Assembly: GCA_036172245.1 (NCBI GenBank)
Contig: JAYWIR010000079.1
Coordinates: 1 to 64,000, forward strand
DNA length: 64,000 nucleotides
Reading direction: 5' to 3'
From: Raillietiella orientalis
Lineage: Eukaryota
A program made the translations under genes and the position numbers. Below, piece after piece: positions 1-41,600 of the stretch; within the stretch, counting starts at the first letter, position 1; the number at the start of each line of letters is the position of its first letter. The notes beneath the pieces are model-generated. The model saw only the letters and a list, made by a program, of their open reading frames with translations. It was not told the origin of the DNA and ran no database searches.

Positions 1-1092
1 CACTCGAGTGTACTTCGCTGCTTCGTTGGCCGTTTTCCCCAGGATTTCCGTCCACAGCAGTTTCGACGCAGAGTCGTCGCCGATGTAGACTCCCAGGTAC
101 TTGGCCGTGTCCACCGTACGGAATCCACTCCCCGTTAGAGTGGAGAGGTTCAGGATTCCGACGGGCAAAAGCTGGCTCTTTTGGGCATTGATTTTCAAGC
201 CCAGTCCCTGTTCCATGAGGTCGACCACATCCAGGAACGCTCGTTGATTCCTCTCTCCCTTGATGAAGAAGAGGAGATCATCTGCGTATGCCAGATGGGT
301 CAGGTGCTGACCATCAATGGAAATCCCTGATAGACGACCGCTTCTCTCGATGTAAGAAGACAGCGCCTCCATGTATATGACGAACAGCATTGGACTTAGC
401 GAGTCGCCCTGCCGGACTCCTCGTTCCATCCTAATTGCTGCCGTCTCTTGGCCGTTGATTTTGATACGGCAGTACTGGTTTTGGAGTACCGCCCTCACGA
501 AGTTGCTGAAGTGTTCCGGAAGCCCTAGCTTCTCCAGAACCTTCAGCAGCATCCCGTGGTCGATGGAGTCGAAGGCCTTCTCCATGTCAGTGAACACCAG
601 CACCAGGTTCTCGCCGACGTATCGGCTGAGTCCGACGGTGGCCTGGGCGCACTTGACATTGTCAGACATGTGTCGTCCTGGGACTGCACACGTCTGGACC
701 GGAGAGATCAGCCTCGACATGACCCTGCCTAAGCGGTTGGACCAGATCTTCGCCAACCACTTGGCATCTGAGTTTAGGATCGAGATCGGCCTCCATTGAG
801 CGATCTGCGTGAGATCGCCTCCTTTTGGCAGCAATCTCATCCTACTCTCGTAGAAGGATTCCGGAAGTCGTCCTTCTTCTCGGATGCAGAGTGTCAACTG
901 GTGGAACAAACGCAGGTAGGCGTGCAGGTACCGCTGATAGTGCGAGATGGGTACACTATCAGGGCCTGCTGCCACATCCTTGCGAAGCTGCCCAAACGCA
1001 GTCTTCACTTCCTCTTCGGAGAACTCCTCCTCCAGTCTATTTCTTTGGAGGTCGTCCGTCCTCTTCTCGAGGTAACCCAGGAAGGCTTGATA
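1..1092 (-). mobile_element. Non-LTR retrotransposon ORF2 reverse transcriptase (L1/Tx1-like), 5'-truncated; continues off the left edge of the window
   Basis: One minus-strand frame reads AAGPD (~963), QWRPISILNSDAKWLAK (~795), QTCAVPGR, LVFTDMEKAFDSIDH (~573), RGVRQGDSLSPMLF (~411), HLAYADDL (277-288) and KYLGVYIG (~99), all in the same frame. Sequence switches abruptly from GC-rich to AT-rich near 1090. Confidence 0.93.
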
Positions 1093-4000
1093 TAGCCTTA
1101 TTGAATTATTTCTTTGCATCTTAATTGTTTGACATGAAAATCTATGCATTCACAAACCTACACTGAAGTATAACAGCATGGTTATGTGCGTTATTTGAGT
1201 TGGTGCATTGGAGCCACTGATTTATGTGCTTGAAACAGTGAGCATGTCTCATCAAAAAAAAAAAATATCCATGTTTCTGCATATTGTTGTGTTTTCTTCA
1301 TTTTTTAGGAAATGCCAAACATTGTGTATTCTTAAGGAAAACTTATGTCAAAAGTTTCATTTTAATTCTGTTACATTAGTAAAATAGTATGATTAGCCAT
1401 GAATATGATTTCACATAATCAATTGAAAAAATGTACGAATAAATTGATTTTATATCGTAAATTCCAATGTAAGTTCTAATGCTGATTCTCATGTTTTGAA
1501 ATTTTCCATTAAAGAAAAAATGTGTGAGTTGTATTGAAAATTATAAAGTTGCAAATATGAATGTTTTGGGTAATTGATGATATATTTAGAGATGATTAGT
1601 GAATGTGTGATGCCCACATGTGAATTAGATGTTGGGAGAATCAGAGGAAATCATTGAATAAAAACAGTAACCTCGATATTGTTTTTTTTACGATCATGAA
1701 TACAAAATCTTAAATATATTTGTTGATAAGCAACATAAGTACGAGTACTACACACACAATTCAGATATGCCTGTGATTTTTGTCAAATTATTTAACATGC
1801 ATGATCACAAGCTAACTGATTTTATAACTCTCTCCCTCGTTTTCTTATTTCCTGTTTGTTTCGATACACATCTTAGTTCTCAGAAAGTGCAACAATTTCA
1901 TGCTTTATTTTCTTTATTGATCTTTATAAAGCGCCTGCTTTTCATCGATTCTTTTTAGGTAACATCAACAGATATGTATGCAGTCCTGTATGCAAATTGG
2001 ATTTCTAGTAATTTTGTTTCCTTTTATTCAAAACCATTTTAACTTTGGTAAATTAAAACAAGGCACTCCTAACAGAGAACATGTGTTCCGTACTAATTTA
2101 TTTCAATTGCTTGTTCCACAAAATTAAAAAAACTGGCGTTTAATGCTATAGACTATTGAAACTTGCTTAATGTTTTGAATCAGTATAATTCAATTGGAGA
2201 AGCCTCATTTTTTCATCAAACAGTATAATCAGTCAGTTTTTTCACAACACGTTTGTCATATGGATTTTTGTACCGTATTCCAGGATCGCTATCGGTTTTT
2301 TCTTAATGATCTCTATGGTTTTTTGAGAGTTATTTTCAGGTTCTTATTAAGGTTTTTAAAATGTAACGAAGGTCTGATTGAGGAATTTCGGATCACAGTT
2401 AATGATAATTTGAATCGCATGTGATTACAGTAACTCATCAAAGAAAGCACATTACAAAATTTTCTTTCGCGAGTCTTGCTGAGAATTTTTTCGAAATTGA
2501 AACTATGACATATATCAGTATCAGAATATGGCAAGTCCTATGTTTAGCTTTCATATTCGTGGAGATGTTTGCAGTGTTCCCGGATTGTGTTGCACATTTA
2601 CCGTTTGCTGTTTTCCCGTTTTTATATTGAAATCGTGTTTTAAAGAACAGAAAAGATTATTAGAACTTTTTTTTTTCTTTGAAACTTTAGGTCTTTTTTT
2701 TTTTCATCACTGGAAATTAAAGCAAATTAAATGAACAAAGGGCGTAAACTTATATTGTGATACAAAAACAAAATGATTTCAAGATGGAAATTTATTTTAA
2801 GATGAACACAGCGTTGAGCAAATCTAGAAATATTATTACAGCCCATTTTGTTTCTATTGCTAGATGATAAACGTATCGGTTTGGAAAGCGCTACTGTTCG
2901 GGCTCATAGGGTTAGCCAGAGTTCGTTTCCATGAATACTTTTCCTAGTGCGAGATTTGATGTTTATTGGAAAATACACATCTCAAACAGTTCTGATTTTT
3001 CACTTAACACATTGCCTGTGGAATGTTCATGTACAAAACGCATTATTGAAAAAGTTTAATAATTAGTTGCACCTTTTCCTTTCCATGTATATCACCAGTA
3101 TACATGTGAGATACACCATGTAACATGTGTGTATCTCTGTATATCAATATAAAACGTAATTATCAACATTATATAGGTTAATGCACTGTACAGTGCACTC
3201 CGCTTAGTAACCTTGAGACTGAAACCGTGTAACGTGATCATCAGAATATTACTTGGTTGGAGAGATACCAAGCACTGGAAACAGACATTTCGAAGTTTAT
3301 AATGAAAATAACAGCAATGTTTCACGTCCGGCCTTTTGTTTACAAAAAATTAAGAATGAAGATTGAATTATAGTTCTTGCAATTATTTAAAATAATAGGT
3401 TAATTTTATTGGAATTCGGGAAAAAAATCTTTGTGGACTGAAGCTTGCACTGAGGTTTTTCATCCCAGTTGGTGAATAACAGCCTGCAGTTTGCAAAAAT
3501 TCATCAACGGATCCACACCCCTTTTGTTCCTACATGTCCTGACGGGATTCAAGCTGTGCACGGCATCGGAAAAAGCTGTTGGTGCAGCATATTTATCGTC
3601 CTTGTCACTACGGCTTCATGCGCAGACTCCTCAGATGGTTTTGGATTAGCATGCATTTTAGTGTAGGCATTTCCGGTGGAGTACAGTTTCACATCATCTT
3701 TAGTTTACTTATTTTCCATTCTTCGTTTCTTCCTTGACTTTACAAAGCAGCTTTTCTGTCGCAGTTAGCAATCACAGTTTGAGTTGAACTTATTCTAGGC
3801 GTTCTCTCCATGTGTGAAGAGTCCAAGAAGTGAAGTTCTTTTGCAGTGTCTGCAGCTTCAACTCGGAAAAGTATTGCACTATTCGTAACTTGTCAGTCTG
3901 GCCATTGCTCGATGCTGTTGAAGATCGCTGTAGTATCTTGATCTGTGTTCGAATCACCCATGCCACTGTTAGGAGGTAAACACTTTTACCATCTAACGGT

Positions 4001-9762: not shown

Positions 9763-15235
<5,473 letters not shown>

Positions 15236-15377: not shown

Positions 15378-16480
15378 TGTAATGCCAATACTACGAATAA
15401 ATCTGAAACATATGGAGGATAGTGTCGTACCCATGTTGAGAAACTGCTATCAAACTCTTCCAGGAAAACAGTGGATTCTTTATGTTTTTTTCCTTTTTAA
15501 TGCGCTGAAATGTAACCAGGAACGATATTTCGAAAACTGAGTGAGTATGCGTATTGAGAAAAATAATTGCAGCCTGCACCCGATGGAAGGAAAAAAGTCA
15601 TGTGTGAATGTGTGAATTCAGATGTTTTGCTTACACATCGGCACTCTCTGAATTAAAATTCGAACTTCAGGTACGGAAGTCCATTCCTCAGGTTTCCTGC
15701 TTCTAAAGCCCTAAATATCCAAAAATATGGAAAGCGTCGTGTATCTGGCACGACGTCTCGATACATCAGCTTTCGACCATTTAGGATACGAAAGAAAAAT
15801 TCAATGTCAGTTCAGCTGTGTTTGTTTCTGTAATTTTTTTTTTTTTTTTTCGTTTCATTTGTATTCGTCATATGCAGTTAATCGCAGCTTCGTTGAAGAA
15901 GTCGGATTGTAGATTACAAAGTCATGTCTTTGGCGTGATGGAAGCCTTAGGAAAGACGAGGTTTCATCTTCGAGATTCTGAGTCTAGTGATTGGATGCTG
16001 CAGTTGCCACTTGCGAGTGACATGCCCAAGCGACAGTAGTTTAGTTTAAGTTGGTTTCTCCGCTACCTGAGTATTTGCAATATGGTTCGGACCGTGAATC
16101 GCTGTTTGACATCGGTGGTTGTCTCGCCGATTGCGGGTGTGCTGCGGTACGCGGAAGAAGAACTTCTTCTACTCTTATCACTTCTTGTTACAGCAAAAAC
16201 ACCGTCATGAAGTAAAAATCAGTTTAGGCTTGTATGCTGCGTGGTCACCTTTACAAAGAATAGGTCAATGCATTCTGATGCAGTTATGTTCTTTCATTAC
16301 TGTTTTCGATGGAAACGTGCTCCTTCCAGTGCTAAGTTCGATTTTTTTTATTTTGACAATTACATGCAGGTGTTTTCAGTCTCCGGAGGTCCGAATAGCC
16401 TTAAGGTGTTGTCAGAAAATGAAATGGTTAAGCTGTGACATTCCGAAAATGAAGCAGCGGTTCTACGAATAGTACTGCTG

Positions 16481-17899
16481 TTGATTTTTTTCCTTTGTTC
16501 GTGGCATGTTCTTTCCGAGTATCCGAGAAGCCACAAACACCGCACATGGAAGGATTCCTATGAAATGACAAGAAATGGGTTTGCCGTCCTCAAAACCACT
16601 TTGCGATGTGCGTTTGGGCGTTCGTCGGGTGTGGCAGCGTCTCTCAACAGCCTCGGAGACGTGCTAGACTGTGCCTTCGCGTGCGGTGCCATGCCAACCG
16701 CCGGAGCGATCGGAAGTTTCTTCTGCCTTCGCGGCACCACGAGGCGCAGAAGAGGCCATTGCGCGCGGAACGCCATCTACATGACCTCGTTGAGATGGAC
16801 AACGAAATGGGGTGGATCCGAAGGTGGAACTTGCCTGCGTCCTGTACAGGATGTAGAGGACTCGATCTCTCAAAGCGAGCAACAGTCCCCAACGGCTATT
16901 CAAGATTGGCAGTATGGCAACTATCTTATGGGATGCGAAAGCGGTGTTCTTGATCAGCATGACGGAGAAAGGGGCATGAATAAAATGAACAGTAGCACGC
17001 GTGCTGCAAAGATTCCACTGGCTCATTTAAACGAGTGCCACCAGAACGGAAAAAAAACAAAACATTTTTTTCTAGCATGGCCCGCTGGTCTGCAGACAAC
17101 AGAAGTCGCTCTCGAATCTGCGTTGGGCTGTGTTGGCTCACATCGACAGCTGGCTTCGATCCATCAGGCTTTCATCCCTTTGGTCTGTCTCATCTTCAAT
17201 CTGCCAATGCATCCGTGGATGAGACTCCTATGGGGTCAGCCACTTAAAACCAGTTCATTTCAAGCCTCGTTACGTTTCGCTGCAAAGCCGGACTTTGGAC
17301 GAGTCGGTTTTAAGTCTCTCACTCCAGAGTTGAGCACACTTCATAAACTTACCCTTAGAAAATGGCGAGACTTAGAGACCGCAGGAACCTCATCAATTTA
17401 CTGTTGTCTGTCCCTGCACAGCGTTCTTGGTTCATTGGTCAATCGAGACTATCGAATCACAAAGCGGGAACATTTTGCAGCATCCACGCTTGCTGCCAAG
17501 CAAGACCACAGACGCGTCTACTTCCGCGTGTCCGGAGGAATTCCGACAAGCGACAAGGAGAACGCAAGAAGGTGGGAGCTCGTGACGTCTCACAAGGGCA
17601 AAGGAAAAAGTTCAACGTGCAGTCCATGTCCGAGTGTTTCTTTGCCACCGTTTGAAATGAACGCAGAACGAAGGGTCAAAGGTATTGTTAAGGGAAGATT
17701 GGAAATGTGCAGAAGTGGCTGGCTGGAGCCACTGTCCTCAGTGTTCGGCTCTAGTCACGAAATCTCTTTTCCTTCTGGAACTGGAGTTGGCGTATGGAAA
17801 CACTGCAATCGAGGATTGAGCCAAGCTTGTGCTAGAAAGGGAAAAAGATTCACTGTCCAAGAAAAAAGTCAATCGGCCTATCCCCATGCTGCAGCATGA
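16481..17899 (+). CDS. Long intronless ORF of unknown function (472 codons; 444 aa from the first ATG at 16565)
   Basis: ORF track shows 472 stop-free codons. No motif was recognised and no long in-register antisense ORF exists. It lies in a GC-elevated block. Protein-coding status is unproven. Confidence 0.35.
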   Translation: MIFFLCSWHVLSEYPRSHKHRTWKDSYEMTRNGFAVLKTTLRCAFGRSSGVAASLNSLGDVLDCAFACGAMPTAGAIGSFFCLRGTTRRRRGHCARNAIYMTSLRWTTKWGGSEGGTCLRPVQDVEDSISQSEQQSPTAIQDWQYGNYLMGCESGVLDQHDGERGMNKMNSSTRAAKIPLAHLNECHQNGKKTKHFFLAWPAGLQTTEVALESALGCVGSHRQLASIHQAFIPLVCLIFNLPMHPWMRLLWGQPLKTSSFQASLRFAAKPDFGRVGFKSLTPELSTLHKLTLRKWRDLETAGTSSIYCCLSLHSVLGSLVNRDYRITKREHFAASTLAAKQDHRRVYFRVSGGIPTSDKENARRWELVTSHKGKGKSSTCSPCPSVSLPPFEMNAERRVKGIVKGRLEMCRSGWLEPLSSVFGSSHEISFPSGTGVGVWKHCNRGLSQACARKGKRFTVQEKSQSAYPHAAA

Positions 17900-20637: not shown

Positions 20638-23600
20638 TCAAAACCATTTTTCCGCATTAAAGAGCATAATATAATAATCTCGTTTGTAACCAATTTCTGT
20701 AAGTGGACTGTTTACATCTCCAGTATAACGACTTATTAAATCTCGATATCCTTGGCCCACGGCTGCGAACATAGGCATCAAATCAGATCTCTTTGGTAAT
20801 GGGATGAGAGCATCAATCTTGCGCTCAAATGGGCGGAATACAGTAAGTGGCAACAAAGCCCCAGCTTCAATGACAATGATACAACCGCCTGTGGTGCCCA
20901 CAAATAAATTCGAATTCCAGATACACATACAGGTAATCTAATGTGGATTATGAACTGTGACCCGATGTCAAAATTTGCAAACCTGGCAGCATGATGTCTT
21001 GGACAATTCTTCAACGTTAATAGACTGAAGACTTTCTGAACATGGAATCAGCCTTGAGCAATCAAGTTTGGCTGAATGATTTGGATATCTATTCCAGAGG
21101 TAAACAGAACTTCCTTGGGTTATGTAAGACCACAAATAATGATCGGTGCACTCTGTGTTTGAAATTAAATTGACGAAATTTGAGTTCGTCATGTCTGGAT
21201 GTTCCAAAAATTCCTGGTCAAGCTTTAGATTTTCATCCATATGAAATAAATACACTCCATTGGAGGCACCACACCACAACTCTATTCTAAAACGGATTAA
21301 TTGAATAAAAGCATTCTTTTGATCTTACTTGTTGTCAACATAAAAAAAAGTCATGGAATGGATTGATACATTCAACTCTGGAATGAAGTGGACCATAAAG
21401 AAATCTTCCTCACTACTAGCATCAGTTGTATTGCTGTGACACAAAATAATGCGACTGCCGACTGCTACAGCTACTTTTGAAACAGGTTGCAAATGGCACA
21501 GGCATATCACTGTGTTGTCTTCAAAATGTGATGTCAGGGAGCGCTCAAAAATGATATCATAGTCATCTGGTCTAATAAATTTATACACTTAAATAATTTA
21601 CTACTTGTACAGTACCTTGAAACAAATAGATTCCCATTATTGTCAACAAACCAAATCATATCTTCAACAGAAGACATGGCCAAAATTTGGGATGGGATAC
21701 ATCGCATTTCAGAGTATGTTTTGATCCGACCAGAATCACATGTTAATACTTCCACACTATTGTTCGCACGGTATAACCAAATTGCACAGGAATGAACAGA
21801 GTTATTTGATGTGGCAGCTGTTGCTAAAATGGATGACATTCCTTCCAAAATAATAACATCATTTAAATGCGAAAATTCTGGGGCTGATACAATAGAAACA
21901 ATCTGACTAGATGTAGGACGCTCCACTTGTTTATGTAACCAACAGTGAACTAATAAATCAAATACGTACATAGGATACAAAATATCCTTAAAACATAATT
22001 TTGAATTTCGATTTATTCTATTTCTTATATTTATCTTACTTTGGATGAAAATGTAGGTCTTGCTCCCCCTAAAACTTCTTCTTTCATAAAGTTTTGTGCT
22101 TCATATGGTGGATGAAGAGTTACTAGTTCATAAATCAACATCCCAAAGGAAAAACAATCTACCTAAAACAAACATATTCAATGTGGTTAAAATTTAAGGA
22201 AATCAATTACCTTTTCACTGTATTCTTCTTCACCATGGAAACATATGATTTCAGGTGCCATGTATCCTTCAGTTCCAGCAAAACCTTTTATTCCAGTGAA
22301 CAAAGAAAACCGGCTTATACTATAATCAGCTAATTTGACAATGGTTGGCACAATTTTTTCCATTGGTTGTGAAATAGACCATACTAATATGTTTTCAGAT
22401 TTGAGATCCCTATATACTATGTGCTGTTGATGTAAATATTCTAATGCCCGACTAATTTGCTGCAAGATTTCACTCAAAATAAAAAATGGCAGTTTACATC
22501 CACAGCGCTGATAATGTCTTAAGATTCGATCTAGTGATCCATAAGGAGCCAGCTCCAAAATCAATGAAACAGGACTGATACACAGACCAAGCAATGATAC
22601 AATGTTAGGATGGTGCAAATTCTGCAAAATTCGAAATTCCTGTCTGGTTGTATAGTATGCTTTCCATGCTGACAGAATAGGATCACAGTTCCATTTACTT
22701 TTCACAGCCTATCACATACATGATTTAAGCATTCTGTACGTAATAAACATACAATACAACAGCATATATTCTGTATAACATGTTAAGACGCTTTTTGAAA
22801 CTGTACAAGCATATATTTCTGAACCTTAAAGCAATTATATCTGTAAATATTATCAATAATGTTAAGGCATATTTAGTATTTCCAAAGAGATGCATGAAAA
22901 ATGCAAAACTATAGAACCTTTCCATACAGTTAAGGTTAAAATTAATTGAAATTTAGGTTAAAAGCTATCGTAATGCATTTACCTCTAGAAAACTCACATC
23001 TACATTCTGTAATGATGAAGTAGGAACAATTGGTTGTAAGAACTTGACTGCCACTTTTGTACCTCGTTCGTTCTTTTTTCTCACAAAAACTCCTTCAAAA
23101 ACTACACTAGAAGCGCCTTGCCCCAGTGGTTTTTCCAATTTAATCGTATTTATGTCCATTAAACAATCCTTGCTTACATCCATGAACATCTAGCACAGTC
23201 AATAACAAACATATTTCTTACAAGTACGACAAACATACAATATCTGGTGCTAGGCTATATAACTGAGATTGTCCATGAAAAGGGCACAAAATAGTCTTTT
23301 CTTTTTCAAATGATTTTAAAATGCACGCTTCGAATACAAAACAGTGCAACACTTTGTTTTGATCATCAAGTGTCAAAGAATTAGACATATGTGTAAATCT
23401 ATACACATTAAAGCAATATCGACAAAACAAATCATAAGATTCTACTCACCTGGAATGTTTGCCAGAATCAACTCTACTATCAAGGTGACAGGGAGAATTT
23501 TTTGTACCTTTCCGCGTATTTTTACATTCTTCAGGAATTAGCTTTCGAAAAAGATTAAAAATAAAATCAAAATACTTTCAGAACTGCTCACATCATTTCG

Positions 23601-26600
23601 CTGATGATGTGCAAAAGTTTGAGAATCAATGTCTATAGCTTCATGTCCATCAATGCCTTCATCGATAAGGCAACTATGACATGGAATAAGACGTAAAATG
23701 AGGTATCTTCCATCAGATGCATGCATAAACCGTGTACCTATTAAGGTAATTTTTATTCAAACAATACAAGAGAAAAATGTTACCTAAAGCTGGATACCAG
23801 TCCTCTAATAATGTATCAATGCATTCTGTACATAAAGTCATCAACCTTGCTATACATTCTATTGTAGATTCCAAAACTGCATTCTCATCATGTTTGCAAG
23901 AAAAAGCATTTGGCAAAGAAATGGTTATGAATGGAAGAAATAATTCAATGAATGTATAGCCTTTGACATTTAGTTGAGTCCAACTTTCATCAACGTTTAA
24001 TTTTATTCTGTAATTTTGAAAAGTAGGATAAACTATAAAGATTAATGCAATAAGTATGAATCAAGAATATGCAAATAATAGTAGTGGATTAATAGTAATC
24101 CAAATGAATTACTCGTTGAGTACTGCTGAGACTTTATTCATGTTCCAATAATTTAAATAATAAAATCATTCAATTTTACATTTATCGGTGGTCAAAAAAA
24201 CTCGTGACATGCACACTTTAGTTATAGACTTATTTTATGAAAAGAGAGAATATTTATGTATGAAACAATGAAGCACAAAATTGAACAATACACTTATATA
24301 CACTCATATAAGGATTATAAACTGATAAAATTTAATCTAAAATTTCTATTAATCGGACAAATAAGGAGCAGCTAACAGACGATACTTTAATTGACTTAAA
24401 AAACTACTTTTTAGATCCTAAACTAAGAAATCAGGATGTTATGTTGATAAGGAATGAATACATTTGAGTGCAATTAAATTAAGTAATCCAAAATTAAGGT
24501 TTGGAAATTTTAATTAGATTAGCTTATCTTTAAAAGGTCCAGGTAAACGAACTCTTGTTCATAGTTAATAAAATCTAAAGGCTTGATCTATTTAATGAAG
24601 TCTCTATAATTTATAAACATCCTCTCATCAATATCAGATATAAAAATCCTCTCATAAAAAGGGATGCTAACGTCAGACATTAGCATCCCTTTTTTTTTGT
24701 ATGGTACTTCCGAATACATACCTCAAGCATTTATAGTCATATGGAGAATAATTCAAACAAGGGAGCATTTCCTTTATCCTCAGGATAGTAATACCTCCAA
24801 ATCGAAGTTCAATTCCAGTTGACCAACATGACCATTCTGCAGAATGATATAAAGCATCCCAAAAATTTTGTGTTAGCTATTCTGCAACATTAATCAAAAT
24901 TTACCTTTATAGAAACCTTACTTGTGTAGAGCATATGTAATACTGTTTCAGAATATCTGCTATGCTTTCTTCAGAAAGAAGGTGAATGATGAAACGGGAC
25001 CAAAACCCAGTAGGTAAATAAGCCAACAACAGAACTCTCCGGACTGAACGAGAATAATGCTCTTGATACCTGGCATCATTTTCAAAATCTTTGAAATCAG
25101 CTGCTTGCTTTTTTGCTAAAAAATAAAAACATTTGTAAATGGTCTACCTATATTTACATTAGTTGCGTTCCACCATCCATACTGATTATCCTGATTCACA
25201 TCAGGAGAAAGAAAGTAAAAGTATATGTTTTTCATTCCAATCTAGCATGCCATAGCACGTTCCTTTGAAAGTTATAAATGCATTGTCAACAATAGCGCTA
25301 TACATTATTGATAATGCAAATGATGAAAAGATGAAAAAAGATAACTAAATTACAGAACTCGAAATCGGCTTTAAAAAGACACGTGACAAACTCCCCATAA
25401 CCATGAATTACACACCGTAGAATACAATGAACAACACTAACTTTGTAACACTGGAATTACAAACCTATGACTTTATCGATAAATTACACATACAAAGAAG
25501 GAATGTCACAGCACACTCCATCAAGCAAGTTGCACCTTAAATGTCATAACTGACATGGATTGCAATGAGGAAAAGTGCTGTATACATTTTCAATAATCAT
25601 TGCCACAGCTTAATTTATGTTAACTAATCAACCTTAATAGTCATGAATTCTTTCAGAATACTAATAACCAAGTTGATAACTCATTAAAGTGCTCAATATT
25701 TGCTTTAACATATGTTCCTCTTAAACTCATTTTGTCCAAATCTTAAACCTGGATAACAGCATACCATGATGTTCAGTTCGTTGTTTACCAACAGAACTCT
25801 GAGGGGAATTTAAATACAAAGATGGTTTTGGATTTTTGAATCGGCTACTCCAGTTGCAGGAACGCAAGGGAAGCTAAAAAATTCAATTTATTTAATTTAT
25901 TTTGTTTTTTGATTCTTAACTAACAAATTTAGGATAATCAGGTGATGAAAAAAAAACTAGAAAAACTGATGACTTATCTAGAAGAGTATATAGAAAGACA
26001 CCATAATAGACATATGCACAAATAAACATGATGAAGATGGGTTCTTGATAGTTCTTTTATAGTTTTCATATTATAAAGAAGACTACGTGTTCAATTTGAA
26101 AAAGCAATCTTACCAGGAATTAAAATGTAAACATCTTTTTTTAAGAAATAAAGAGATTTTATAATTAATCCAAGGATTTCACAAGATGTAGTTTGATTTG
26201 AAAAATAAGATTTTGTTTCCACTTTCAATTATTTTAGCTACATGAGAAAACATGAGATTTAATAGTTGTAGTTTGAATAGTTCGAAAATTTGGCTGGATT
26301 TGCATGTTCCAAATTATGCAAATATTCATGCAACTCAAAAAGAAAAAAAAGATAGCATGAAATCAATGTAACTAAACTCGTTACTAGCTCTTTGTTTCAA
26401 CAAATGGAAACAATTCGAAGAAATAATCAAACAGATTAGATGCAGAAATAACAGTGGCTACTTCTTATAGAAGTAATTACTTATTATATAAATAGTCACT
26501 GTTACTCCTGCATCTAATCTGTTTATCAAAACATGATTTGACGTGATTATAAATGATAAGTTAGCACACTAACATAAAGATTGCTGATTGTTTGAGAGTA

Positions 26601-29600
26601 GTTCTCTTGATTTTGTAGAAATAACAATGGAATAAATTGTTGACAACATTATGCGATGATTGCTGCAAATTAATTTCTGTGCATATACATACTCAGAAAA
26701 GCACTGTTAATACTTGTACTTTCTAGATGGATTCTTTATGTACTTTATCCTTTGAATTAGGAAACCAAAATCAATAATCAATTACTTATGAACAGTTGCA
26801 CTGCACTTAATTACGAAAGATTTCAGAAAATTAGAAAAAAAAAAAAACGCGTGAAGAAAAGCAAATGAGAAAGATTCTACAAACTTACTTTTACAGCATT
26901 TTTTAAAGGATCAAGGAGCAGTGCATCTTCAGTGGGTAATAATGATGGAACTAGTAGATTGCGACCATCCCATGTTAAGGCAATTTCAAATTTACTAAGT
27001 AAGTTGGGAACATAAGAACCAATCATAGATGAGGAAGGTCGGAAACTTTTGAATAATACATCCAGGTCATCAGTTTTCATGATTCCTTAATACACTGGCT
27101 AGAAATAATCATATGCAAAATAAAATATACCAGAATGCATAAATGGATTAATTTCCCTGATTGTAATAACATGAGCTAACATATCACAGAGCCACTGGGG
27201 ATCCATAAAATATAAATCTTTCAAAATACAATCTTCATAATGGAGAAGAATACCTAAAAATATAGGCACTGCTTTAAAAATGAGGATATGATGAGTGAAG
27301 AAAAAAAAATATGGTTTTCTTGCATTGTGTAGTTCAAAATTTCTGAATATTAAGAATACTAGCAAAAACATACCATTGTCATGAAGAAATGATGTTGCTT
27401 GATTTAATTCCGACTCATCACGAAATGATAAGTTAAATTTGCTACTCATTTCTTCTTGAGTAATTTGCTGATATTCATGATATTTCAAAACGGGTTCTTG
27501 TCCTTGCTTTTGCAAGCGAGCTGAAAGACTGGTTACTATATCTTCCAGAGCTAAATAAACTGCTGGGATTTTTTGTTCCAACAATTTTTGTTGACTTCCT
27601 AATAACACATTAAGAATCATTTACTATAATAATTCCACGCTTCACCAAGAGCATTTTCTACCTGGAACTTTGAGATCATGTGCTGTGTCATAAATCAGAT
27701 TACACAGCATCCGGATATTGTATCGAGATTTGCAGCTTACTTCTATAGAATGAATTATCTTTGGAAGACCGGAACTACTGGGTTCAAACACATCAATGTA
27801 TTGACTGTAAAGGTATTCTCGTAACTGCTGTGTGTAATCACAGGGTACTTTTTCTTTAAGTTCATCAAAATGTGTACCAACAAGTATTACTGGAGAATTA
27901 GGTGCACGGCACTACACTACTGGTTCAATCATAGTGGGTTTACTACTTACTTGGATATTGATAAGCCACTGACGAAGATCGTCAATTGCACCATATCCTT
28001 CAGTCATTTTCCAGACCACCAAATAAATGCTGCGTTTGGACAAAAAATACTGATGAGTAGCATAGTATTCTTTCTGTCCACCGAAATCCCAAGTTCTAAA
28101 ATACATAATCTCAATTTTAAAGCAATATTTAAATGTTGCGTAACTGCTTGTAGAATTATTCAGATTGAATATATTGTAATAATTTTTTTGGAGAAGAAAT
28201 AATTCGAGTAATAATAACATGAAAAAAACAACAAATACGTACACATACATGCATTACCCACTTTTTGATGTGGTGGATTATGCTGAAAAATGTCAGCAAA
28301 TATGTGTATTCAAAACACACTGTATGCTGTAATAAGTTCTATAGAATTCATTACAAGTTGATGACAATACTTTACATGAACTTTAAACTCGTTTCTCATT
28401 ACAATTTTAGAAATACACCTGTTGCTATGTGTTTTTCTGAAATTTTAAAACTGTTTTGGGAAAACCAGTAACGACAGTGAGAATGCAGAATCTATTAAAA
28501 GTGCATGAAACAAAAAACATGAAACATGAAATAATCATGCTTCATAAAGCTACATAAAATTAACACGTTTAAAAATTTTTTAAACATAACCTTTATAATT
28601 ATACTTTATGTATTTTGGTGCCTAAGCTGCACTTGAGAATGATTTTTGTGAATAAATTTTTGTACTTCGAAAATTTTCTAGTACAAACAACCATTTGCAA
28701 ACTCATGCTTTGAGTTGAAGGTGTATTCTATTCCTTGTATGACAATTTTGGACTTGATAAATGTATGATCTCAAGTTTTAATTTTATTTTCTAATACCTG
28801 AAAGTTATGGGACCAAGAGCATTGGATCCTTTCCGCTTCCTTTCATAAATCCAAGATCCAATATCAACTCCCACTGTTGAGAGTATTTTCCTTTTTGTCG
28901 ATTTCGAAGCTGCACCCTTATTATTCATACGATTGGTCCAATGCTAAAAACAATATATTTGATGCAATTACATAAAGGTGTACCTCATTTTGCTTTTTTC
29001 TCCAGCTTCCTTGTTGCCTTAATTGCTCAAGTAAGGAAGTCTTACCAATGCCTTGATCACCAACAATCATTAATTTCATTCTGGTATATGGACGAGCATC
29101 ATCAAATACTGATCTCAAATAACCTAAAATTTCTGCTGTCTTATGCCTTTTGGATATAATCACAGTATGGAGTGGTTCATGTAAGGAACAACCATCCAAA
29201 TTCAAATTCCAAAGATGAGAAAGGAGACCCATGCTTGCAGGTAGATCATTGATACCTGCAAATTGGATGATAAGTTGGAATCAAATAAATGACTGATGAT
29301 TATCAAAAGAGGCAAATAAAAATGGAAGCAAAGTGCAAGTCTAACCGTGGTTTCCAGATATGTTAAACACTGATAATTTAGACAGGCCACAAATGCTATC
29401 AGGTATTGACTTCAAGTTGTTATTGGACACATCAAGCATGGTGAGATTTGGAAACAGCAACAGTGAATCTTTTTTGGAGAATGATAATTCCTTTTTGTGC
29501 TGAAAGATTAAAATGCATCCATTTTTGATACGGCACATGAAAAACTGTAGTATTTTTTAAGTTTAACTTGAGATAACTGAAAATTGAAATCAAATATTTA

Positions 29601-32600
29601 TGCATAAATGCTGAAAAGTTCAAACGGAAACTACAATAGTTTTCTAAAAGTGAGGAAAACAAGTCCTTTTTTTTTTTTTTTGCTTTTTAATTTAGTTTCC
29701 TAAGCTGAAAATAAATCAGAAGGTAAATTATCTAGATATTTAAGACATCTATATGATAAGTCATGGTTCTGCAAGAGAGGGTATTTAATTCAGAATTATA
29801 TGTATATGAACTTAACAAGTAAAACAGTCTATCCATTTACTTGACAGTCCAAAGCTTAACTTTTTAAAAAAAGCAGTCATGAGTCTTAAAGGAAACAAAA
29901 GTTTTGTGAGCAGAGATTTCTGAATACTCTGTATGAATAGATTCATTTTGAAACCAAAATACCACAAATCAAATCCACTAAACAGCTAAATGAATATTCT
30001 GTGCTCCACCAACTTGGAAAATAATTTATTTCTCTAGCATAATTCTTGAATTTTTTGATAAATGCAGGTTTTTATTGATTGTGTTTTTAATTCTATATAT
30101 TGATTAAAAGTACAATGATGAGTGTAATGTTAATGACTACAGTGTACAAATATTTGTACAATTTTAAATGACAGCTAATGAAATAATTTGTTTTTAAAAA
30201 AAATGAAGCCAATCACAAAATCCACAATGAACAAACAACGAAAATTCACTAAAAATTATTTTCAAGCATTAAAGCTTGCAGATACGTTTCCCAAAATAAT
30301 ATGAAATTAAAATAAGTGACATGCACTACCTTATTCATAATACTCATGCAATTTGTTGATCAAAAAATTATGTGGGTATGCATATAATCTCCAAAATAAA
30401 TCTTTCAACGAAACACAGAATAAATCACCGGAATGCTGCCTATTTAAATTTACATGTCGTTATATCTATGATAGAATGGATTTCTGAATACCATGTTCAG
30501 TTATGAGTTTAAAGATTTCTTGATCACTGTTTTCCGATTTTCAGCTCTTTCCAATCTGCCCCAATTTATGCAACATCAAAATTCATAAATGCAGAAAACA
30601 AACATTTCAATTTGCTTGTGGGCAATTATAAATAAATTTACATGTCTCATCATGAATATTCCATCTCTATTAGAGTGTTTGGGCTCCTAAAATTGCTTAA
30701 ACCGACTCATAATTACGTAGTTAGTGGGGGATAAGTCAGCTATTACTAGCTTACTAGCAGCTAACAGGAAGCAGACAATCCTAAAAACACAAGCATTACG
30801 TTACCCATCATCGACTTCCATTGATCAAAATATACTGAATGTTTTTCACACACTTGTAAAATGATTCACCAGGAAGAAAGGCCAAATGACAAAATGTAAT
30901 TGAAAATTGAAAACAACAAAGATGTCCATATTTATCTCCTGGATAAAACTTTTCCCATTAAATATATTTTTCTTGTTTAATAATCGCAACAATCAGATAC
31001 TTAACACAAAGCATTCCATGTTTATGATTTTAATCATTAATTGTTCATCTGTAACTAAATCCAAATGTTTAGAACGTTCAGGATTATAACCAAAAACCAG
31101 TATTAAAGCTATCCTATACATGCCACATTTCTTACATGAGTTCTTGTTTTGCAGGAAGTTTCTTTCTAAAAGCGTTCCTTCAGCTATGTTGAGTTTGGAT
31201 ATTACTCTAGCTTCGAAAAACAATCAGTAATGAGAAACAGATTTTAAGTCAATTATACATTCTTCGTTTTTCTTTCTCAATGCATTCGAGAAAATTGGTG
31301 ACAGAAATCTGTTCAACATTGTCCAACCAATGATGGAGAATGAGTATACAGAATGATAAATTCCAGAGGAAATTCTATTATTTCTACGTATTTTGTTTTA
31401 ATGATTCACAATTAATTCTATTAAATTTAGATCATTTTTGCATTGTTTAATATAAATCCAACATGGATATTATAACATATTCAGGCATTAGCATGCATAT
31501 TATACATGTGAAAACACTTATAGGATTATATGCACTGGAGAGTTTCTGGATTTCTCAAGTTGTGATCTTACGAGAATCCTAAGGAAAATAAAAACTATTT
31601 TATTTACCCATTCTGACAAAGATCCTTCTTCAGAAGTCTGATGACAAGAAATGGCAATTTCTTTCAAGAAATTGTTTGCTAATAATAATGAATTTAAATT
31701 TTTCAGTTGCTTATGTTTCCGATGGTCACACACTAAAATGAATTGGAAAAGTAAGTATTCTGGATTTGAAAATTAGTATAAAGCAACCAAATTAACATAC
31801 ATCAAATACATTTCATCATTTACACAAGTGGACAAAGACGAGAATTTTTAAATCAATGTAACGCATCTGAGGGTAAAACAATTGGTTTGTATGTAGCATT
31901 ATGTAAACATATTGCTCCTCACAACAATGAGACAAAATGAGAAAAATATAGACCACCTACATATACAGTGCCATTTCTTGATTTGATTATGAACATAACA
32001 ATACATTTCTTTATTTTTAGATGCAGGTGTTGCAGATGCGACAAAATCTGATTTGGTAATAATAACGTTTGACTTGGAAATATGCAAACGAAAAAATTAA
32101 TGTTATTTAGCAAATTGGTGTTATTTATATTTATGTGTTTGGAAATTAAAGCATCCTTTCACAGACAATGATATACAAAGTTTCTGATTTTTCAAAGTGA
32201 ATTTCATAAGACTTACAATCTAAAACGAATACTATCTAAAACAAGTACGCTCAAATCAAAAGAATTAAATAAAATTCTGCAAACAATCCATAATTTCAAA
32301 TGCATTCCACAAATGCAATGAGTTCATAATTACATTAACATACTATGATCTCATTTATTTTAAACATATGAAAATAATTCAATTTAATAATAAGAAGAAT
32401 TACATGAACATTTTTCCTCAACAGCTGCACAGGATGCATCAGATATGTTGCATGAGTATGTATTAAATAAAGAAATGAGTTTATTGCTTGATACATCCAA
32501 ATACTTCAAACTCAATGGATACAATCCTATGAAGCCAAGTGTCTCCAATCTTTCAAGACAAATTTGGAAACACCATTTATTTACTTTTCATTGATGTTTA

Positions 32601-35600
32601 AAAATCAACAGTGAAAATAATAAAACATATACACATCTAAACAAATATGCATCATGTTGAAGAGAATGAAGCTGCAGAAGTTATTCAAACACACATAAGC
32701 TGGATTTCAAGTATATTAGAAAGTTAAATTAGAAATAAAAAGCAAATTAGCAAAGGAAAATAAATAAAGTATTGGGCATATATCTTGCTCAATAAGGAAT
32801 TAATAAATACCTATTATAGCTAAGATTTAGAGTCTGAAGATTTCGACAAAAGCATGCACAAGCCTCAGGAACACTTTTCAATTTATTATGAGACAAATTT
32901 AAATTAACTATTGGACACTCGGAATTCATAATATTTTCTGATGCTGCTTCTCTGTCAATAAATGTAAGGGTATTAATCCATCGGTTCTGGTGTCGTAGAA
33001 ACTTTTCTTCCAAATTTTTAATCATCTTAAGATTTGTAAATTCTTTTTTTGCAGAAAGACATTCGGTTTCTTCAGAAATGGAAGAATGAAAAACAGTTGA
33101 TTCCGGTTCAAATCTGTTTTTTGCACACTGATCCAAATTTTCTGACTGAAAAGTTGACATTTTTGAAGTTTCAGAAGCAGTATTAATTTTCAAAATCTTC
33201 CCACATAAAGTGGGAAGATCTTCAATAAGATTGAATGAAAGGTTTAAATCAACTAAAGATTTTGCACTCCAAATAGTAAATGGTAATGCAGACAATTTAT
33301 TATTTGATAAATCAAGTATCTTAATATGCTTAAAGGCGAAAATTCCTTCAGGTATTTGCACTAATCTATTGCACTGAAGATGCAATTCTTCCAAGATACA
33401 AAGACTTTCCAGCTGCATCTTGTGTTCAGAGTTTTGCCATACTTTTGGCTTGATGTTGTCCAAATCAAAAGTGATGTATTCCAATTTATTGAATGATGCA
33501 TTCAATATTTTTAAACTAGGCATCTGGAATAAAACAGACGGTAAGTTTTTGAGGGAATTTCCGGATATATCAATTCTTGTGATGGCACACAAGGAAATGA
33601 AACTTTCATTTAACTTGCAGTACAACTTTCTATTCAAATGCAAACACGAATCAACAAGCCACTCTTCCTTCAATGTGTCCGCTAATCCAATATTGTGCCA
33701 GTTAATCATAACAGGTGTTGTTGGAAATTTTGAACTATAAGTGATAAGATTTCTATTAGTCATGATAGGTAGTGACTGTGAAAATCCATGATATTCCATT
33801 GTGGGTTTGTTGATTCTGATATCAGGGTCGGAAAACACATGCAACATTAAGAGAGAGGAAATCATTTTGTCGTCATTATACTGAATTGCATAACGCAATG
33901 CTTTATTTTGATAATCCCGAGCACCATATTGCAATAACAAATTCATCATGTTTAAATCCCTTAATCTGCAGGCCTCTATGAGGCATGATGTCTCTAAAAC
34001 AGAAATAAAATGAAACAGCACAAGAATATCTGTACTTACCAGAAAATATCGTTTCATTTTCTACTGAACCTACATTTGGAATGTAAATTGTTTGATTAGG
34101 ATCAGAACCCGAATCTAAAAGATGCTTAGCAATTTTATGACATCCTTGAGTCACAGCTATGTATAAAGCTGTCTGACATCCATTGTTGCAATACACATTA
34201 ACATGAATAGGAAGTATTTCTTTTTTCGAAAAGCTTTCATAATGCAAGTCCTTAACTTCCTGTGAAGATAATTTTTTAATGATTGCTTGTATGTTGTTTG
34301 ATATTCTAATTTTCGAACAATGAATATCACTTTCTTGATGATGATTCTGCAGTGTATCAGAAAGCTGATTACCTTTCTGTGAAGAAAAGGGTGATCCCTG
34401 AATATCTTGCAAGGTTTCAAGCATTTTAATTTGTTACACTTACCTGGACATTAAATAATTCTACGAACTGAGTTAGGCGAAACTGTAAAAGCAATTCCAC
34501 TAACTGGTAATTCTCCAAGTAACATGAAAGAAAAAGAGCAGTATTTCCAGAAACATCCTTTGCATTTAAATCAAAGGCAAATTTAAAGTTGAACTTTCCG
34601 GACTCATCACTGGAAGTGACAAACAACATTTATTTAATGAAATTTCCAGAGATATTGAGATACGCAAGTGGATTTAGAAATAATCATGGAAATTCTTTTA
34701 AGCATATTCAAAGATAAAATGTACCTAAACGTTTGTAAGAACTCATCAGGATATTTAAAATATAGAAGCATACTGAGAATATCTGCTTGACCACTGATGC
34801 AACATGCATGACTAGGAAGCCATTTTTCAATTGTGGGTAATTGTACCAATCTGGGATATTTCTAAAACGTTTACTACCAATAAATAAAAAACAAATAATA
34901 ACCAGTACTTTTAAAAGTAGCTGAACTATGTGCTTTCTTCCTTTTAAACATGATATGTATAAAGGAGAATATTTGGTTACAGGATGTACGCGATCATCGG
35001 CTCCATTCTCCAAAAGAAGCTCCACTAGTTTATCATTGCCTTCTTCACATGCCCTGAAAAACAAAAATGAATTCATTTGAAAAAAACTTGGACATCCATA
35101 ATTTATGTTTTACAATGCTTTCTTTCCTTTCAACAGTATTGCTAATTAACTCATACATTATAAAATTCCCATATGACTTTCTTAGTCATTTATTTATACA
35201 CTTTTATTACTTTTGGGTTTTTACTTCTATATCTCCATAGCGTCCATGTGAAAACTAAAATCTGATAAGGTTCTTAGAATCATTAATTGCAATTTACATT
35301 TAGGTATGTGATAATAAATACGTTCCACTTTAATAATAATGATTTTATCTAAAACTGCTCTTCACTTTTACCGATCCAAATCATTGAGATTAATTAAAGA
35401 TGAATAGTTTAGCATTTTGAATTTTGCATCCTCTGGGTTTGTTGATCTTGTCAAACTATTTCCATAAGGAGAAATACTTTGTAAAGGAAAACAAAGGCCT
35501 AGAACAATTAGATAAACGAGAAAATGAAAATAAATAATAGTTTTTTTTTTTTAATCATATATAGATAATGAAGTTCAAGTAATGAAATGAATAATCAGAA

Positions 35601-38600
35601 ATGTATGATGTACATCAGAAATGAAGGAATTTAGGAAAATAAATATAATAATAATCTATCTATAAAGAACACTGATCCACAATTTTTCAGTATGCATGGT
35701 TTGAAGTGGTAAGGGGACTTTCAGTTATATTAAGCATCCTTTTGTTTTATTGGTTTCCAGCACTTCTACATATTTGGTATTTCAACAAGGCTGTGAAAAA
35801 TCATGTTACCTTTCAGTCACATCTTATTTATGTTAATATTTCATATGTTCACATACATACTGAATGCAACACTGAAAAATTATCAACTTATGTTATCTGT
35901 AAATTCTTACTTGTACAATAAAGTATTTGAACCATTGGGAGCAGAATTAATTGCAAGCTTTTTGTTTCCACGAAATTCACTAAGAAGTCTTGAAATTTTG
36001 CTAATATTGTCTTCAGAACAAAATTTTTTTAAAGTCTGATAAAAATCATGGTTGTGAACTTCCTGGGAATCTTGAAGAGAAAGAACAGGAAAATAAACAT
36101 TGACGATCTAAATAATTAGTTAACAAATAAATAGGATGAACGTTAGGATTAATTCTTAGTGTTTCTTAGTGTAATAAATTTACAATCCATACAATATACA
36201 TGTTTCTAGCAATAAGTCCAGAGATCTTTTTTTCTAAATTAAAGCATCAAAACGCAATTATTTCATTCATGTTTTTGTGTGCTGAAGGAAGAATTCCCAT
36301 AATTATGCCTTAATGCATATGAAATTTTGCAAATCACAATACACAAAGTTATATAATGAGGTCCAAAGTTCTTCAGATTGGAAGAAGGAAGTCAAAAAAT
36401 TATTCCAGATATCTGCACCTGTAGCTTGTTTTAATATTTCCACACAAGTATGATGACCCCCTAAGTCAGCTAAATCCAGTGCTGTAAGTCCTTTGGCATC
36501 CTTTATCAATACATCAGCTCCAAATTGAAGAAGCAATCTTATATTTGTTTCACGCCCACATTCACTTGCAAGATGTAAGGGGCTCTAAAACAAGAACTTT
36601 ATATTTCTTTCACATATTTCACTTATTCTGGGGTGACAACACCTCATTACAGCATTTTAATGAACATCAGTTTCCTTGTTATAATTGACTGTTTTTTAAG
36701 ACCCATGAAATATACCATAACCTTCTATTATTACAGACTGTTTTATTATTTGACAACTAGGAATTTTCTGAATGAAATACAGGTTGAAAAAGGCAAGGAA
36801 TAGTTCGCATTTTTGATAATATCACTGCACATCAATGTTTTGATCAAAATTTCATGCAATAAAAGGAATTTTTAAATGACAGAGTTCTTATTATTCAGTG
36901 AGCCAAAATTATCAAATGAAAGAAGCTGTTTGAACAATATTTTCTCGTAGACACACGATACATTTTCAATAGAATATCAGAAATTTATTCACAAGTGAAG
37001 ACCTAAATACTGATATCGCCAACCCAAGTTTTATGAATGAAGAGTTTTTTTATTAACAGAAGCTGTCCTGTAGAAAAATAGGCATTCTACTGCACCATTC
37101 AAAATAATCCACGATTTACATAGTTAAATTTTCTACCGGTAGGAAATCCTTCCAGTAGAAATATTCTAACACCAATTGTCTGAAAATTCAGGAACTACCA
37201 ATCCTGTTGAAATGCTAGGTGTACAAAACTTTCCAGAATGCCATAATTTAAGGGCAAATCACTTGATTTAAACTAAGTAAACTGTCTCACAAGGTCCCTT
37301 TTTATCATGCTGCTTTGTCACCAAAAGAACTAAATCCCTACAAATACAAAATAAGCAAATATTGGAAGCAATGCATCCAGTTCCTTCAAAAAGTGTATTG
37401 AAATAAGGGCAAGACAATGAATAAACAAAATAAAAATGTAAAAGTAGATGATTTGCAACAAAGAGATTTTTATAAACTAAAAATAATTACTATACCGGAA
37501 CTTATTAGATCCTTTAAATTTTATTCATGGCTGGGAAATATGGAATGCATCGATACCAAACATAAATCCAAGGAAAGAAAGAAAGAAAGAAAAAGTTGAT
37601 CAAATATTAAAATTATCTTACTTACTCTACTTTATGTGCGAATTGATAAAATTGGAAAAGAATTTCTTTCAGAAAGTACCTAAATCTGAAAGCTGGAAAT
37701 GTGGATAATGACACTCATACCAAAAAGACTATCAATAACTTAGCATTATGAAAGAATGGACTCGAAATGCATGTCATTGAAATAAATATCTAAACAGTTT
37801 CTATTAATATTACTTGGTATTGTCAATGTAGGAAACAGTGTTAAGTTACTGATCAACTAAAAGGCACATTTTTCTAAATTTTTAAGAAGTATAATTAATT
37901 TGTAATTGCAAATATGCAAAAAAGGCAAACTGAAACATATTATACAAATATGCTTCAAACACACTGAACACAGACATCTTACACATATGGAATTTACAAA
38001 CCAAGAACAAAACCGAAAACTTCACTATTACAGAAAATAACTATCTTTTACTTTTAGCATTTCCACCAATGGAAGAACCACCAAAAAGTTAAGGACTATA
38101 ACATTAAAACATCTCTTTTCATTTCTTAATTTGAGAAGAATTTTCAAAGATCATTAAAGAAAAACTGATTTTCTACTTTGTGTTGTACAGCATATACAGC
38201 CAATTATTCTGTTCCGATCGAAAATATAAAAAGAAACAAAAAATATCCTATGCATACAAAAATTATAATAAAAAAATTGCTACATCTTTATGACCTTCTA
38301 AAATTCATTTGGACATTAACTTAGATTTCTAGTATCGTTTTGTCACTATGCTTGCCTGAAATAATTCTGATAATTTTTCAAAATTATTGTAAGATGTTCT
38401 TTTTTCCAAAACACCTACAAGCCTTCTCAAGTCCATATGCTTTTTTTTTTTTGATATCGACGGTATGAAAACAGAGTAGTCTTAAATTGTTAAAAATACA
38501 TATGATTTCATGCAATTGTCCAAAACAGATTTCTCCTAAGTTGTAAAAAACCGATAAGATTCCAAATAATTAACATACTTGTATACACAACTATCAGTCA

Positions 38601-41600
38601 AAAATTTTCAGCTTGCATCATAGATCAGACTGTTACATTTGAAGAGACCAAAAAAAAAACACTTTTTGTTCCGATGAATTTTTCCTCCCTATTCAAAAAC
38701 TGAGGCCCAAACATAAATTTGAAAACTGTTTGATCAATACTTGCAGATTTTGTTTTCCACGATAAACTCCACATGGCTGCATAAATTTGTCAACTTCAAA
38801 ACATCAGTTTCTGAATGTTAATTAATGAAAGATTGATAAAAATGAATATTACTATTTTTCTGCCTTGTTATGTTATTATTCTGAATCTTTATTATTAAGT
38901 ACTAAAGGCATTCCGAGATTATTTTGTTATTATTCTTTCTAACCCCAATATTGTCCGATGCTACACTGTTCTTCAGGTTAGCATCTCTGTGTTCCCAAAA
39001 TGTTCCGAGTCTGCATAAAATATACTTTGTTAAATTTTGTTACTTAATTTCTTTTGAGATTAGCATGTTTTAATCTCGTATCTCTTTTAACAAGGTATTA
39101 AAGATTTTTGCACTTTATTCAAACTTTTATCATGTATATGTACACGACATAAGTAAATGATTCAAAGACAATTCAAAGAGCAAGTGAGTATTCAATGCAG
39201 CGTTTTTGAGTGCAATTTAAGATGAAACCTTCGCAAATGCACATGCCTAAACAAATGAAATGTTAGAGTTCCATATTACTGTTAGAATGTCAAAGAACCA
39301 ATGAAAGCCATTTAACTCCTCTATGATCAATAAATCAGGCTTCCCCTGACTTGCAAAGACACAAATCTTTCTTCAAGTAGCATCAATTCTAATTTTTGGA
39401 ATTTTCATTAATACAAAATAGAAATTAAATTCAAATTAATACCTGAGTTTTTTCTATTATTTGAAAACCTAAAAAGCAAACAGAGAAAGTCTGTTAAACT
39501 CAGAGACAGATAAAATGAACAGAGTTCAGAGCCTTAACTGTTACAAGTATTATTAACCTTAGCTAAGCCATTTTTTAGAATTTTCCGTTGAAAAAGCGTT
39601 TTTAAGAAATGCACCATGCATGGGAATATGCAGATGTTTCAACTTTATCACTATGTTTTACCTGTAACAGTTTTAGATTAGTTTGAGTTGAAAAAGGAAA
39701 GATGATTAATAAAAACTTAATTCAGAATTATGATTTAAGCATTGCGAAACAATATTACCCACCATTATTTCTACCTGACTAACTGAATTTCAAACACCAA
39801 TTTGTGTTCCAAAAGAAGAATTAATAACATGCGAAAAGTAGCATTAAGGTGGACTAGTATGTATGCCTAAATCTCTTCATAAGCATTTCAAATTATAGAT
39901 GCAACTATTCATACCAAAAATATAGTAATTCAGAAATAAGGCTCCATCATACATTGCAGCTACAAATTAGGTACTAGTTAAATAAAAGCCACAAACTATT
40001 CCAAAACAATTGTTAAAGTGGTGCAACTTCCAATCACAATGATTCTAAAAATTCCATCACATTTTTGGTTATCCCAATTATTATTCCATATTGAAGCCCT
40101 AACTTTCAAGGTAGTACCGAAATTTTCCCACTTCTACCTGAAAATGTTCAAGTGTTCTTTGGAAACTTTTTGGGCAATTCCAAATTAAATCATTTATAAT
40201 AGTACATTAATTTAGATACGTAATTCTGATCAACCATTATTGAATTCTTACACACAATCAAATCAAATTAGTATTCCTTAACTTCAATGTTGGAATATCT
40301 GCAGGTTTCAATTTGATGATTCATTCAATGATCACATTAAAACATGAATCACTTAATAAGGATCAGTAGTGAACAATCACGTGCATTTCATCCTTGAAAT
40401 GCTGGTTTAAGATAAATGAATCATATTGCAAATCATCCAGCTTTCCAAAACATGACAACAATATTCACACAAAAGAATTTAATATAAACTGCTGTAGTGA
40501 TTCTTTTAGTATCAACAAATTCACAGAATGGCTTTGAATAATCGACATTTGCATCTCAAATAACAATTTAAATTTAGATATGAACTGTAATTCTAGTGAA
40601 AAGGAAAAGACATTCAAAAAATGCATCACCTTATTGCCATCTTTAGGTCCACAAATAACATTTGGACTGGCTGAAAAAAAAAGCACATGCAAGTTACATA
40701 CAGAATTTTGTTTTTATGTGTCTTTACATTTATTGAGTATCTTACCTCCAGTCTGCAACAAAATCTCTAAGCATTTTGAATCCTTATTAATGCTTGCAGT
40801 ATGCAATGGTGTTCTTCCTTGTAAATCTATACAATTAATATGATTTCTTTCCTCTCCATTGAGAAGATCTTCTAATAATTCAGAATTATCCCACAAAGCT
40901 GCCTTAAAATAGAATAATTGTTTAGAACAAATAATAGTTTATTTTTTTTCTCACCAAAATACTTTGCATTAATGCAGTTTTATGTCACATGAATTTTAGT
41001 TTAATTATAAGTGAACATCAGAAAATCTAAGGCAGTGATGTGAGTGTAACATTGCTCATCTGTAATTTCAATATTGAAAAAAACTCTGGACTCATTCTCT
41101 CAACTGAAGAAGCTTAAAATGTAACCTATTACATAAAATCCAAAACACTTCATGATTAATCATTCACTTTTGAATGAAATAAGAGATGACCACTTTTCAA
41201 ATAGAAATATTTAAATTCATCAAACGCATACCTAAGATGATAATGACTCTATTTGTGCAAGTTATTTTTGCTAGTGACAGAAACTACAAGCACTAGCAAA
41301 GAAAGAATTAGAAAATCCTAGTTTGTGAGACTTGATACCTTTTATAGCTTTACTGATTTGACTCATATGTGTTTAAGAAATCTGTTTCAAAAGAAAACCA
41401 TTATTTGACATGGATATAGCAAACATTAAACTCAATCAACGAAACTGGGAAGAAAAAGGCATCATTCATGAAACCAAAACGAAGAAAAACCTGAACCCTT
41501 GGCGGATTCACAAAGTACTGAATACATCAGCACAATGTGTACTTGGTTCGTGTCACTTCTCATGAACGTTTGTTGCAGTAAGAAAATGCAATAACTGGCA

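Follow-up and report, generated by a model that had tools for sequence, protein, structure and literature searches.

The commonest inherited mutation in Parkinson's disease falls on the glycine of the DYG motif in LRRK2. In the window, by which we mean the whole 64,000-nucleotide stretch of DNA that was analysed, a kinase gene of the same family reads DYS instead. This locus raises the question of whether the serine is a genuine feature of the encoded kinase, whether it is shared by related kinases, and whether it is likely to make this kinase more active.

On the minus strand, the motif was read directly as GAT TAT AGT (D-Y-S, a DFG-type motif with Ser for Gly), within the context gtc aaa tta gct gat tat agt ata agc cgg (VKLADYSISR in translation). 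The first base (A) of the serine codon is position 22321, and the DYS reading, the coordinates and the AGT codon given in a preliminary description of this DNA were found to be exact. In alignments, the DYS of the window falls opposite the DYG of human LRRK1 and opposite the DYG, DYS or DFS of the other homologues. The further claims that the gene encodes an LRRK-family kinase, that DYG is the usual state and that the serine stands at the G2019-equivalent position are also borne out. Although the window kinase has DYS in place of the DYG form of the DFG motif, an alignment of 104 LRRK-type kinase domains, the window counted, has glycine in 79 and serine in 25, so that DYG is a typical and not a defining feature of LRRK kinases. 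The serine may be fixed in the source species, which is represented by a single assembly. The sole DNA run that was matched contains 5% of the words sampled, with contigs that span about 21995-22178 and do not reach 22321.

The motif belongs to an intact gene of LRRK architecture, with the domain order ANK-LRR-Roc-COR-kinase-propeller (Table 1). Three full-length homologues, from a millipede, a hemichordate and a crinoid, gave colinear tblastn matches on the minus strand from ~40920 to 20640. The succession of Roc and COR that marks ROCO proteins is present: Roc was recognized with an E value of 2.4e-9 (37.9 bits, cutoff 27) together with a P-loop piece (E 1.5e-4), COR-A scored 35.9 bits against a cutoff of 35.3, COR-B was weak in Pfam (E 0.0078), and the Roc-COR region gave colinear tblastn matches to all three homologues. 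The kinase domain lies C-terminal to COR and has its catalytic residues. Ankyrin repeats and LRRs were found at the N-terminal end and a propeller at the C-terminal end; although its Pfam match is weak (E 0.0014), the propeller can be aligned with the C-terminal ends of the homologues. The gene has very short introns, among them those at 22163-22210 (48 nt), 21987-22039 (53 nt) and, presumably, about 27912-27953 (~42 nt), and several of them are in frame with the exons, so that long homologue matches read straight through them.

Table 1. Positions in the window of the putative LRRK1-type gene, its domains, its kinase exons and the two serine sites
Feature	Position	Strand	Basis or remark
Whole LRRK1-type gene	40920..20641 (about)	-	Limits are the ends of tblastn matches, not mapped transcript ends
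Ankyrin repeats	about 40905-34474	-	Pfam Ank, Ank_4; tblastn
LRRs	34337-32810	-	Pfam LRR_8 E 2e-21; tblastn
Roc	29487-27915	-	Pfam Roc; tblastn
COR-A/COR-B	27620-24724	-	Pfam; COR-B weak
Kinase	23189-21621	-	Pfam Pkinase; tblastn
Upstream kinase exon, with glycine-rich loop GQGASS and the VAVK Lys	23189..22998 (about)	-	tblastn to P0068 and P0079; weak PK_Tyr_Ser-Thr match
Ser at the third Gly of the GxGxxG loop (GQGASS), codon AGT	23106..23108	-	Alignment column 12
Main kinase exon, 166 codons	22708..22211	-	AG acceptor 22710-22709; GT donor 22210-22209; phase 0 at both ends
DYS motif	22327..22319	-	D codon GAT 22327-22325; Y codon TAT 22324-22322; S codon AGT 22321-22319
Kinase exon VDCFSFGMLIYEL...	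22162..22040	-	After 48-nt intron; tblastn
Kinase-domain end and linker exon DILYPMYVFDLLVHCW...	21986..21621	-	After 53-nt intron; tblastn; 3' boundary approximate
C-terminal propeller-like region	21285-20641	-	Weak Beta-prop_LRRK2 match; tblastn

Against solved structures, the main kinase exon scored highest with human LRRK1 (94 bits, E 7e-26), ahead of LRRK2 (82 bits) and Roco4 (65 bits), and the named relatives returned by the homologue searches are annotated as LRRK1 or LRRK1-like. These matches suggest that the gene is LRRK1-type and that orthology to LRRK1 is likely, with the trees described below holding one vertebrate row (a fish protein, P0051, with a motif context like that of human LRRK1) and no row identified as LRRK2. 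Human LRRK1 (8E04, 8E05, 8FAC), the best solved match, has the same domain order as the window protein and shares with it the alpha-C RQE and the ...KL.DY.ISR... context. The two differ in that the window has DYS and not DYG, YRD where human LRRK1 has FCD, and a serine at the third glycine of the glycine-rich loop. Identity to homologues reaches ~60% at best on the exon and 47-55% over longer alignments, and no near relative was found in these searches. A comparison with a protein atlas returned generic kinase clusters only.

The kinase exons are separated by introns of about 290 nt, 48 nt and 53 nt, and the joined kinase domain contains no stop codon. The upstream exon terminates in ...QNVD, followed by a GTGAGT donor, and its 5' boundary was placed from an adjacent upstream TAG/AG. 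The main kinase exon (Pfam Pkinase E 3.8e-28) carries the alpha-C RQE, which contains the alpha-C Glu, as well as YRDLKSEN, DYS and APE. The catalytic elements VAVK, YRDLKSEN and APE had been described as intact, and all of them can be read directly. With its Lys, alpha-C Glu, catalytic loop, DYS Asp and APE in place, the predicted kinase should be catalytically competent. Also described as unchanged were NIQCRAP and YLPTGFW; YLPTGFW is present in the gene, and NIQ|CRAP is readable once a presumed in-frame intron of about 42 nt, deduced from the open reading frame list, is removed. CRAP and YLPTGFW are the putative equivalents of R1441 and Y1699 of the human sequence; the two short exons bearing them had no match among solved structures.

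At the third position of the glycine-rich loop, glycine occupies 97% of the other 103 aligned rows, whereas the window has serine. The kinase has in this way a second Gly-to-Ser change, here at a glycine that is conserved and binds nucleotide.

The exon was aligned to all 208 proteins from two homologue searches. The motif is DYG in 106 of these proteins, DFG in 47, DYS in 19 and DFS in 8, and the remaining 28 have another motif or are unaligned at the site; most relatives thus have glycine, and 27/208 have serine. In a tree of the 104 kinase domains, 24 serine-bearing homologues formed one clade in which every row (24/24) carries serine, and this clade was seen again in a more careful tree of 66 rows. 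It comprises Adineta and Rotaria (DFS), Didymodactylos (DYS), 14 metagenomic DYS proteins and three identical DFS rows, and its neighbours are one nemertean and one leech protein, both with DYG. The sister position of the metagenomic DYS proteins to the bdelloids suggests that they may come from other rotifers. In one of them, encoded on a metagenome contig (L001), the motif serine is also AGT (GAT TAT AGT), and the codon in a DYG relative (L002) is GGT, a single step away. Serine is thus the normal state of an entire animal clade that includes the bdelloid rotifers. As to whether DYS is widespread among invertebrate LRRKs, on which the preliminary description had made its reading depend, this holds in part: DYS or DFS is fixed in that one clade, and glycine prevails among the other relatives.

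Within the clade, the Adineta and Rotaria proteins P0030, P0031, P0035, P0037, P0038 and P0039 have YLD and not YRD in the catalytic loop and DFS and not DYG at the motif, and Didymodactylos retains YRD together with DYS. A word search of the open-access literature found no description of a natural serine at the LRRK motif position. There is older phylogenetic work on LRRK genes by Marin.

Trees were built from the kinase domain and from a longer alignment. In the quick kinase-only tree, the window fell among arthropods and nematodes, and all 55 other members of its clade in the 104-row tree carry glycine (P0086, for example, reads DYG); P0095 has an insertion between DY and G. A tree forced to unite all serine-bearing rows was 16.5 lnL better than this quick free tree (p-AU 0.74). 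The careful kinase tree (66 of 104 rows) joined the window to the serine clade with weak support (61/49; 64% of bootstrap trees), and a grouping of the window with Ecdysozoa fitted the kinase domain equally well (p-AU 0.57). The kinase domain alone was rejected as a basis for placement, the window being unplaceable on it, with a long branch of about 1.0.

The longer alignment extended from Roc to the C-terminus (26 rows by 1562 columns, with 22 long-branched, gappy or redundant rows dropped), and the window exons were taken from tblastn matches with the millipede protein as guide. In the resulting tree, the window joined nematode and arthropod genes named "LRRK1" or "leucine-rich repeat kinase" with support of 99/99, and the rotifer-type serine proteins formed a separate clade with support of 100/100. 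A single serine group appeared in only 2% of 200 bootstrap trees, and forcing one cost 16.2 lnL (p-AU 0.063). When the hemichordate protein guided the choice of exons, the placement was the same (SH-aLRT 94). The end branch of the window is about 1.0-1.2. From this placement, an independent second Gly-to-Ser change in the window lineage appears better supported than a single origin, for which a p-AU of 0.063 falls short of formal rejection.

Before a role is sought for the serine, it may be asked whether the protein carries it at all. The A at 22321 could be an assembly or sequencing error, or one heterozygous allele of a gene whose usual product is DYG. All other members of the window's clade have glycine and the change is a single transition, as such an account would have it; however, the base lies in a clean, in-frame exon, many further sites also set the protein apart from its relatives (end branch about 1.0-1.2), and serine is common enough in nature (27 of 208 homologues) that no error is needed. 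We regard an error or a heterozygous allele as very unlikely. The preliminary description had also raised A-to-I editing, by which the genomic AGT would be recoded to GGT and some or all of the protein would be DYG. The target A does lie in a U-A-G context (TAT AGT), UAG being the preferred ADAR neighbourhood, and AGT recurs in one relative from the DYS clade (L001). Such a context is nevertheless expected by chance at about 1/16 sites, the 300-nt RNA around the site folds worse than 200/200 shuffles (z +3.05), and of five inverted repeats in 21300-23400 none covers the site. The proposal found no support beyond the UAG context, given the weak fold and the lack of a covering inverted repeat; editing at 22321 is speculation, and we hold it to be extremely improbable.

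If the serine is real, it could be functional: it may bond the residue before the alpha-C Glu and hold the kinase in the DYG-in active state, giving a higher basal activity that is kept by selection, possibly with compensating changes. A review (PMC4017136) describes a new hydrogen bond from the serine of Roco4 G1179S to Arg1077, which precedes the alpha-C Glu and has a Gln as its LRRK2 counterpart. Activity goes up with this bond, and removal of the partner restores wild-type activity in Roco4 and in LRRK2. Gln occupies the partner position in the window (RQE) and in 21 of 25 other rows compared; because a Gln precedes the alpha-C Glu, an activating effect is structurally possible, and by analogy with Roco4 and LRRK2 a contact between the serine and this Gln is conceivable in the window kinase. 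The invariance of serine in an old and diverse clade of 24 rows suggests maintenance and not transience, and at three near-invariant columns the window has a residue of its own; one is the third glycine of the glycine-rich loop (Ser in the window), and all three changes could be linked to the motif serine. On the other side, human LRRK1 also has RQE, and yet in the account of Malik et al. (PMC7886321) G1411S does not activate it. Co-variation with serine was limited to two other columns (I at column 64 and L at column 234, both shared with the serine clade and present in <15% of glycine rows), and no clear compensating change of the kind allowed for in the preliminary description was found in this screen. 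Both the protein as a whole and the DDX55 gene next to it have long branches, which fits general fast evolution and not a specific adaptation. An activating serine maintained by selection seems to us unlikely.

We consider it probable, by analogy with human LRRK1, that the serine is a tolerated, near-neutral change in a real LRRK1-type kinase, and this reading is judged the most likely because the window gene is LRRK1-type. Human LRRK1 G1411S, the equivalent of G2019S, is reported by Malik et al. (PMC7886321) to have wild-type-like activity towards Rab7A. That activity was measured in overexpressing cells, and the result may not hold for a kinase ~50% identical. On the tolerated-serine reading, a single G-to-A change, GGT to AGT, would have turned DYG into DYS in a gene that appears to belong to a fast-evolving invertebrate lineage, most probably one of Ecdysozoa other than the arthropods and nematodes sampled. 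Serine at the motif would be a state that LRRK1-type kinases tolerate, being the normal residue in the rotifer-type clade at least and having probably arisen again in the window lineage, and its effect on activity would be expected to be little or modest, as for human LRRK1 G1411S. The suggestion that the window encodes a constitutively more active kinase does not carry over, because the gene is LRRK1-type and LRRK1 G1411S is described as wild-type-like (PMC7886321). To speak of a fixed "disease residue" overstates the case, since the gene lies on the LRRK1 branch and natural serine is widespread in another invertebrate clade.

Human LRRK2 G2019S belongs to the same family, has serine at the same DYG position and, like the window kinase, has Gln before the alpha-C Glu; it differs in that LRRK2 is a more distant paralogue of the window gene than LRRK1 (82 versus 94 bits) and in the standing of the serine, which in human LRRK2 marks a rare dominant disease allele and in the window is the reference state. 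Activation by serine is documented for LRRK2 and Roco4 (PMC4017136) and, in the account given in PMC7886321, not for LRRK1. Dictyostelium Roco4 G1179S offers a structural model for a Gly-to-Ser change in a Roco kinase, although this mutant was made in the laboratory, in a DFG kinase that is only distantly related to the window kinase (65 bits). The rotifers (Adineta, Rotaria and Didymodactylos) and the metagenomic clade resemble the window in having serine as the normal residue, as DFS or DYS, with AGT as the codon in L001 too. Adineta and Rotaria differ from the window in having YLD and not YRD and Phe and not Tyr in the motif, and they fall in a separate clade on the long alignment.

Because many animals carry serine normally in a sister kinase type, constraint on the DYG glycine is not absolute across the family, and what serine does depends on context, in agreement with the neutrality reported for human LRRK1 G1411S (PMC7886321). 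Natural Ser/Gly pairs could be used to find the residues that decide whether serine activates, although the practical value of this is modest. A bolder reading, which we think quite unlikely, is that invertebrate LRRKs have on at least two occasions taken a G2019S-type serine as their normal residue, in the rotifer-type clade and in the window lineage, with the kinases running more active but offset elsewhere. If so, the serine of the glycine-rich loop in the window and YLD in the bdelloids would be candidate offsetting changes, and these kinases would amount to natural experiments on life with a G2019S-like kinase.

Several other features were observed in the window. A DDX55-type helicase exon at 54588-55286 (+) has at most 52% identity among the 120 matches listed, the best of which is from a scorpion, so that among these matches it has no near relative in annotated genomes; the divergence of the window LRRK protein and of DDX55 fits a generally fast-evolving lineage. 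The stretch at about 44000-48000 has a GC content of 0.49, compared with ~0.30 in the introns of the LRRK gene, and contains open reading frames of 117-177 aa on both strands, and a 486-aa open reading frame lies at 16439-17899. Neither this 486-aa frame nor two of those from the GC-rich stretch had a Pfam match, and they may represent repeats, or a promoter island directly upstream of the LRRK gene. At 53177-53575 (+) lies an exon for the C-terminal part of a malate/lactate dehydrogenase (Ldh_1_C E 6.5e-32), and at 9763-10110 (+) an exon of another protein kinase, a candidate tau-tubulin kinase (Pkinase E 1.4e-8). At 1-1149 (-), an open reverse-transcriptase fragment (RVT_1 E 2.3e-34) belongs to a LINE-type element that runs off the start of the window.
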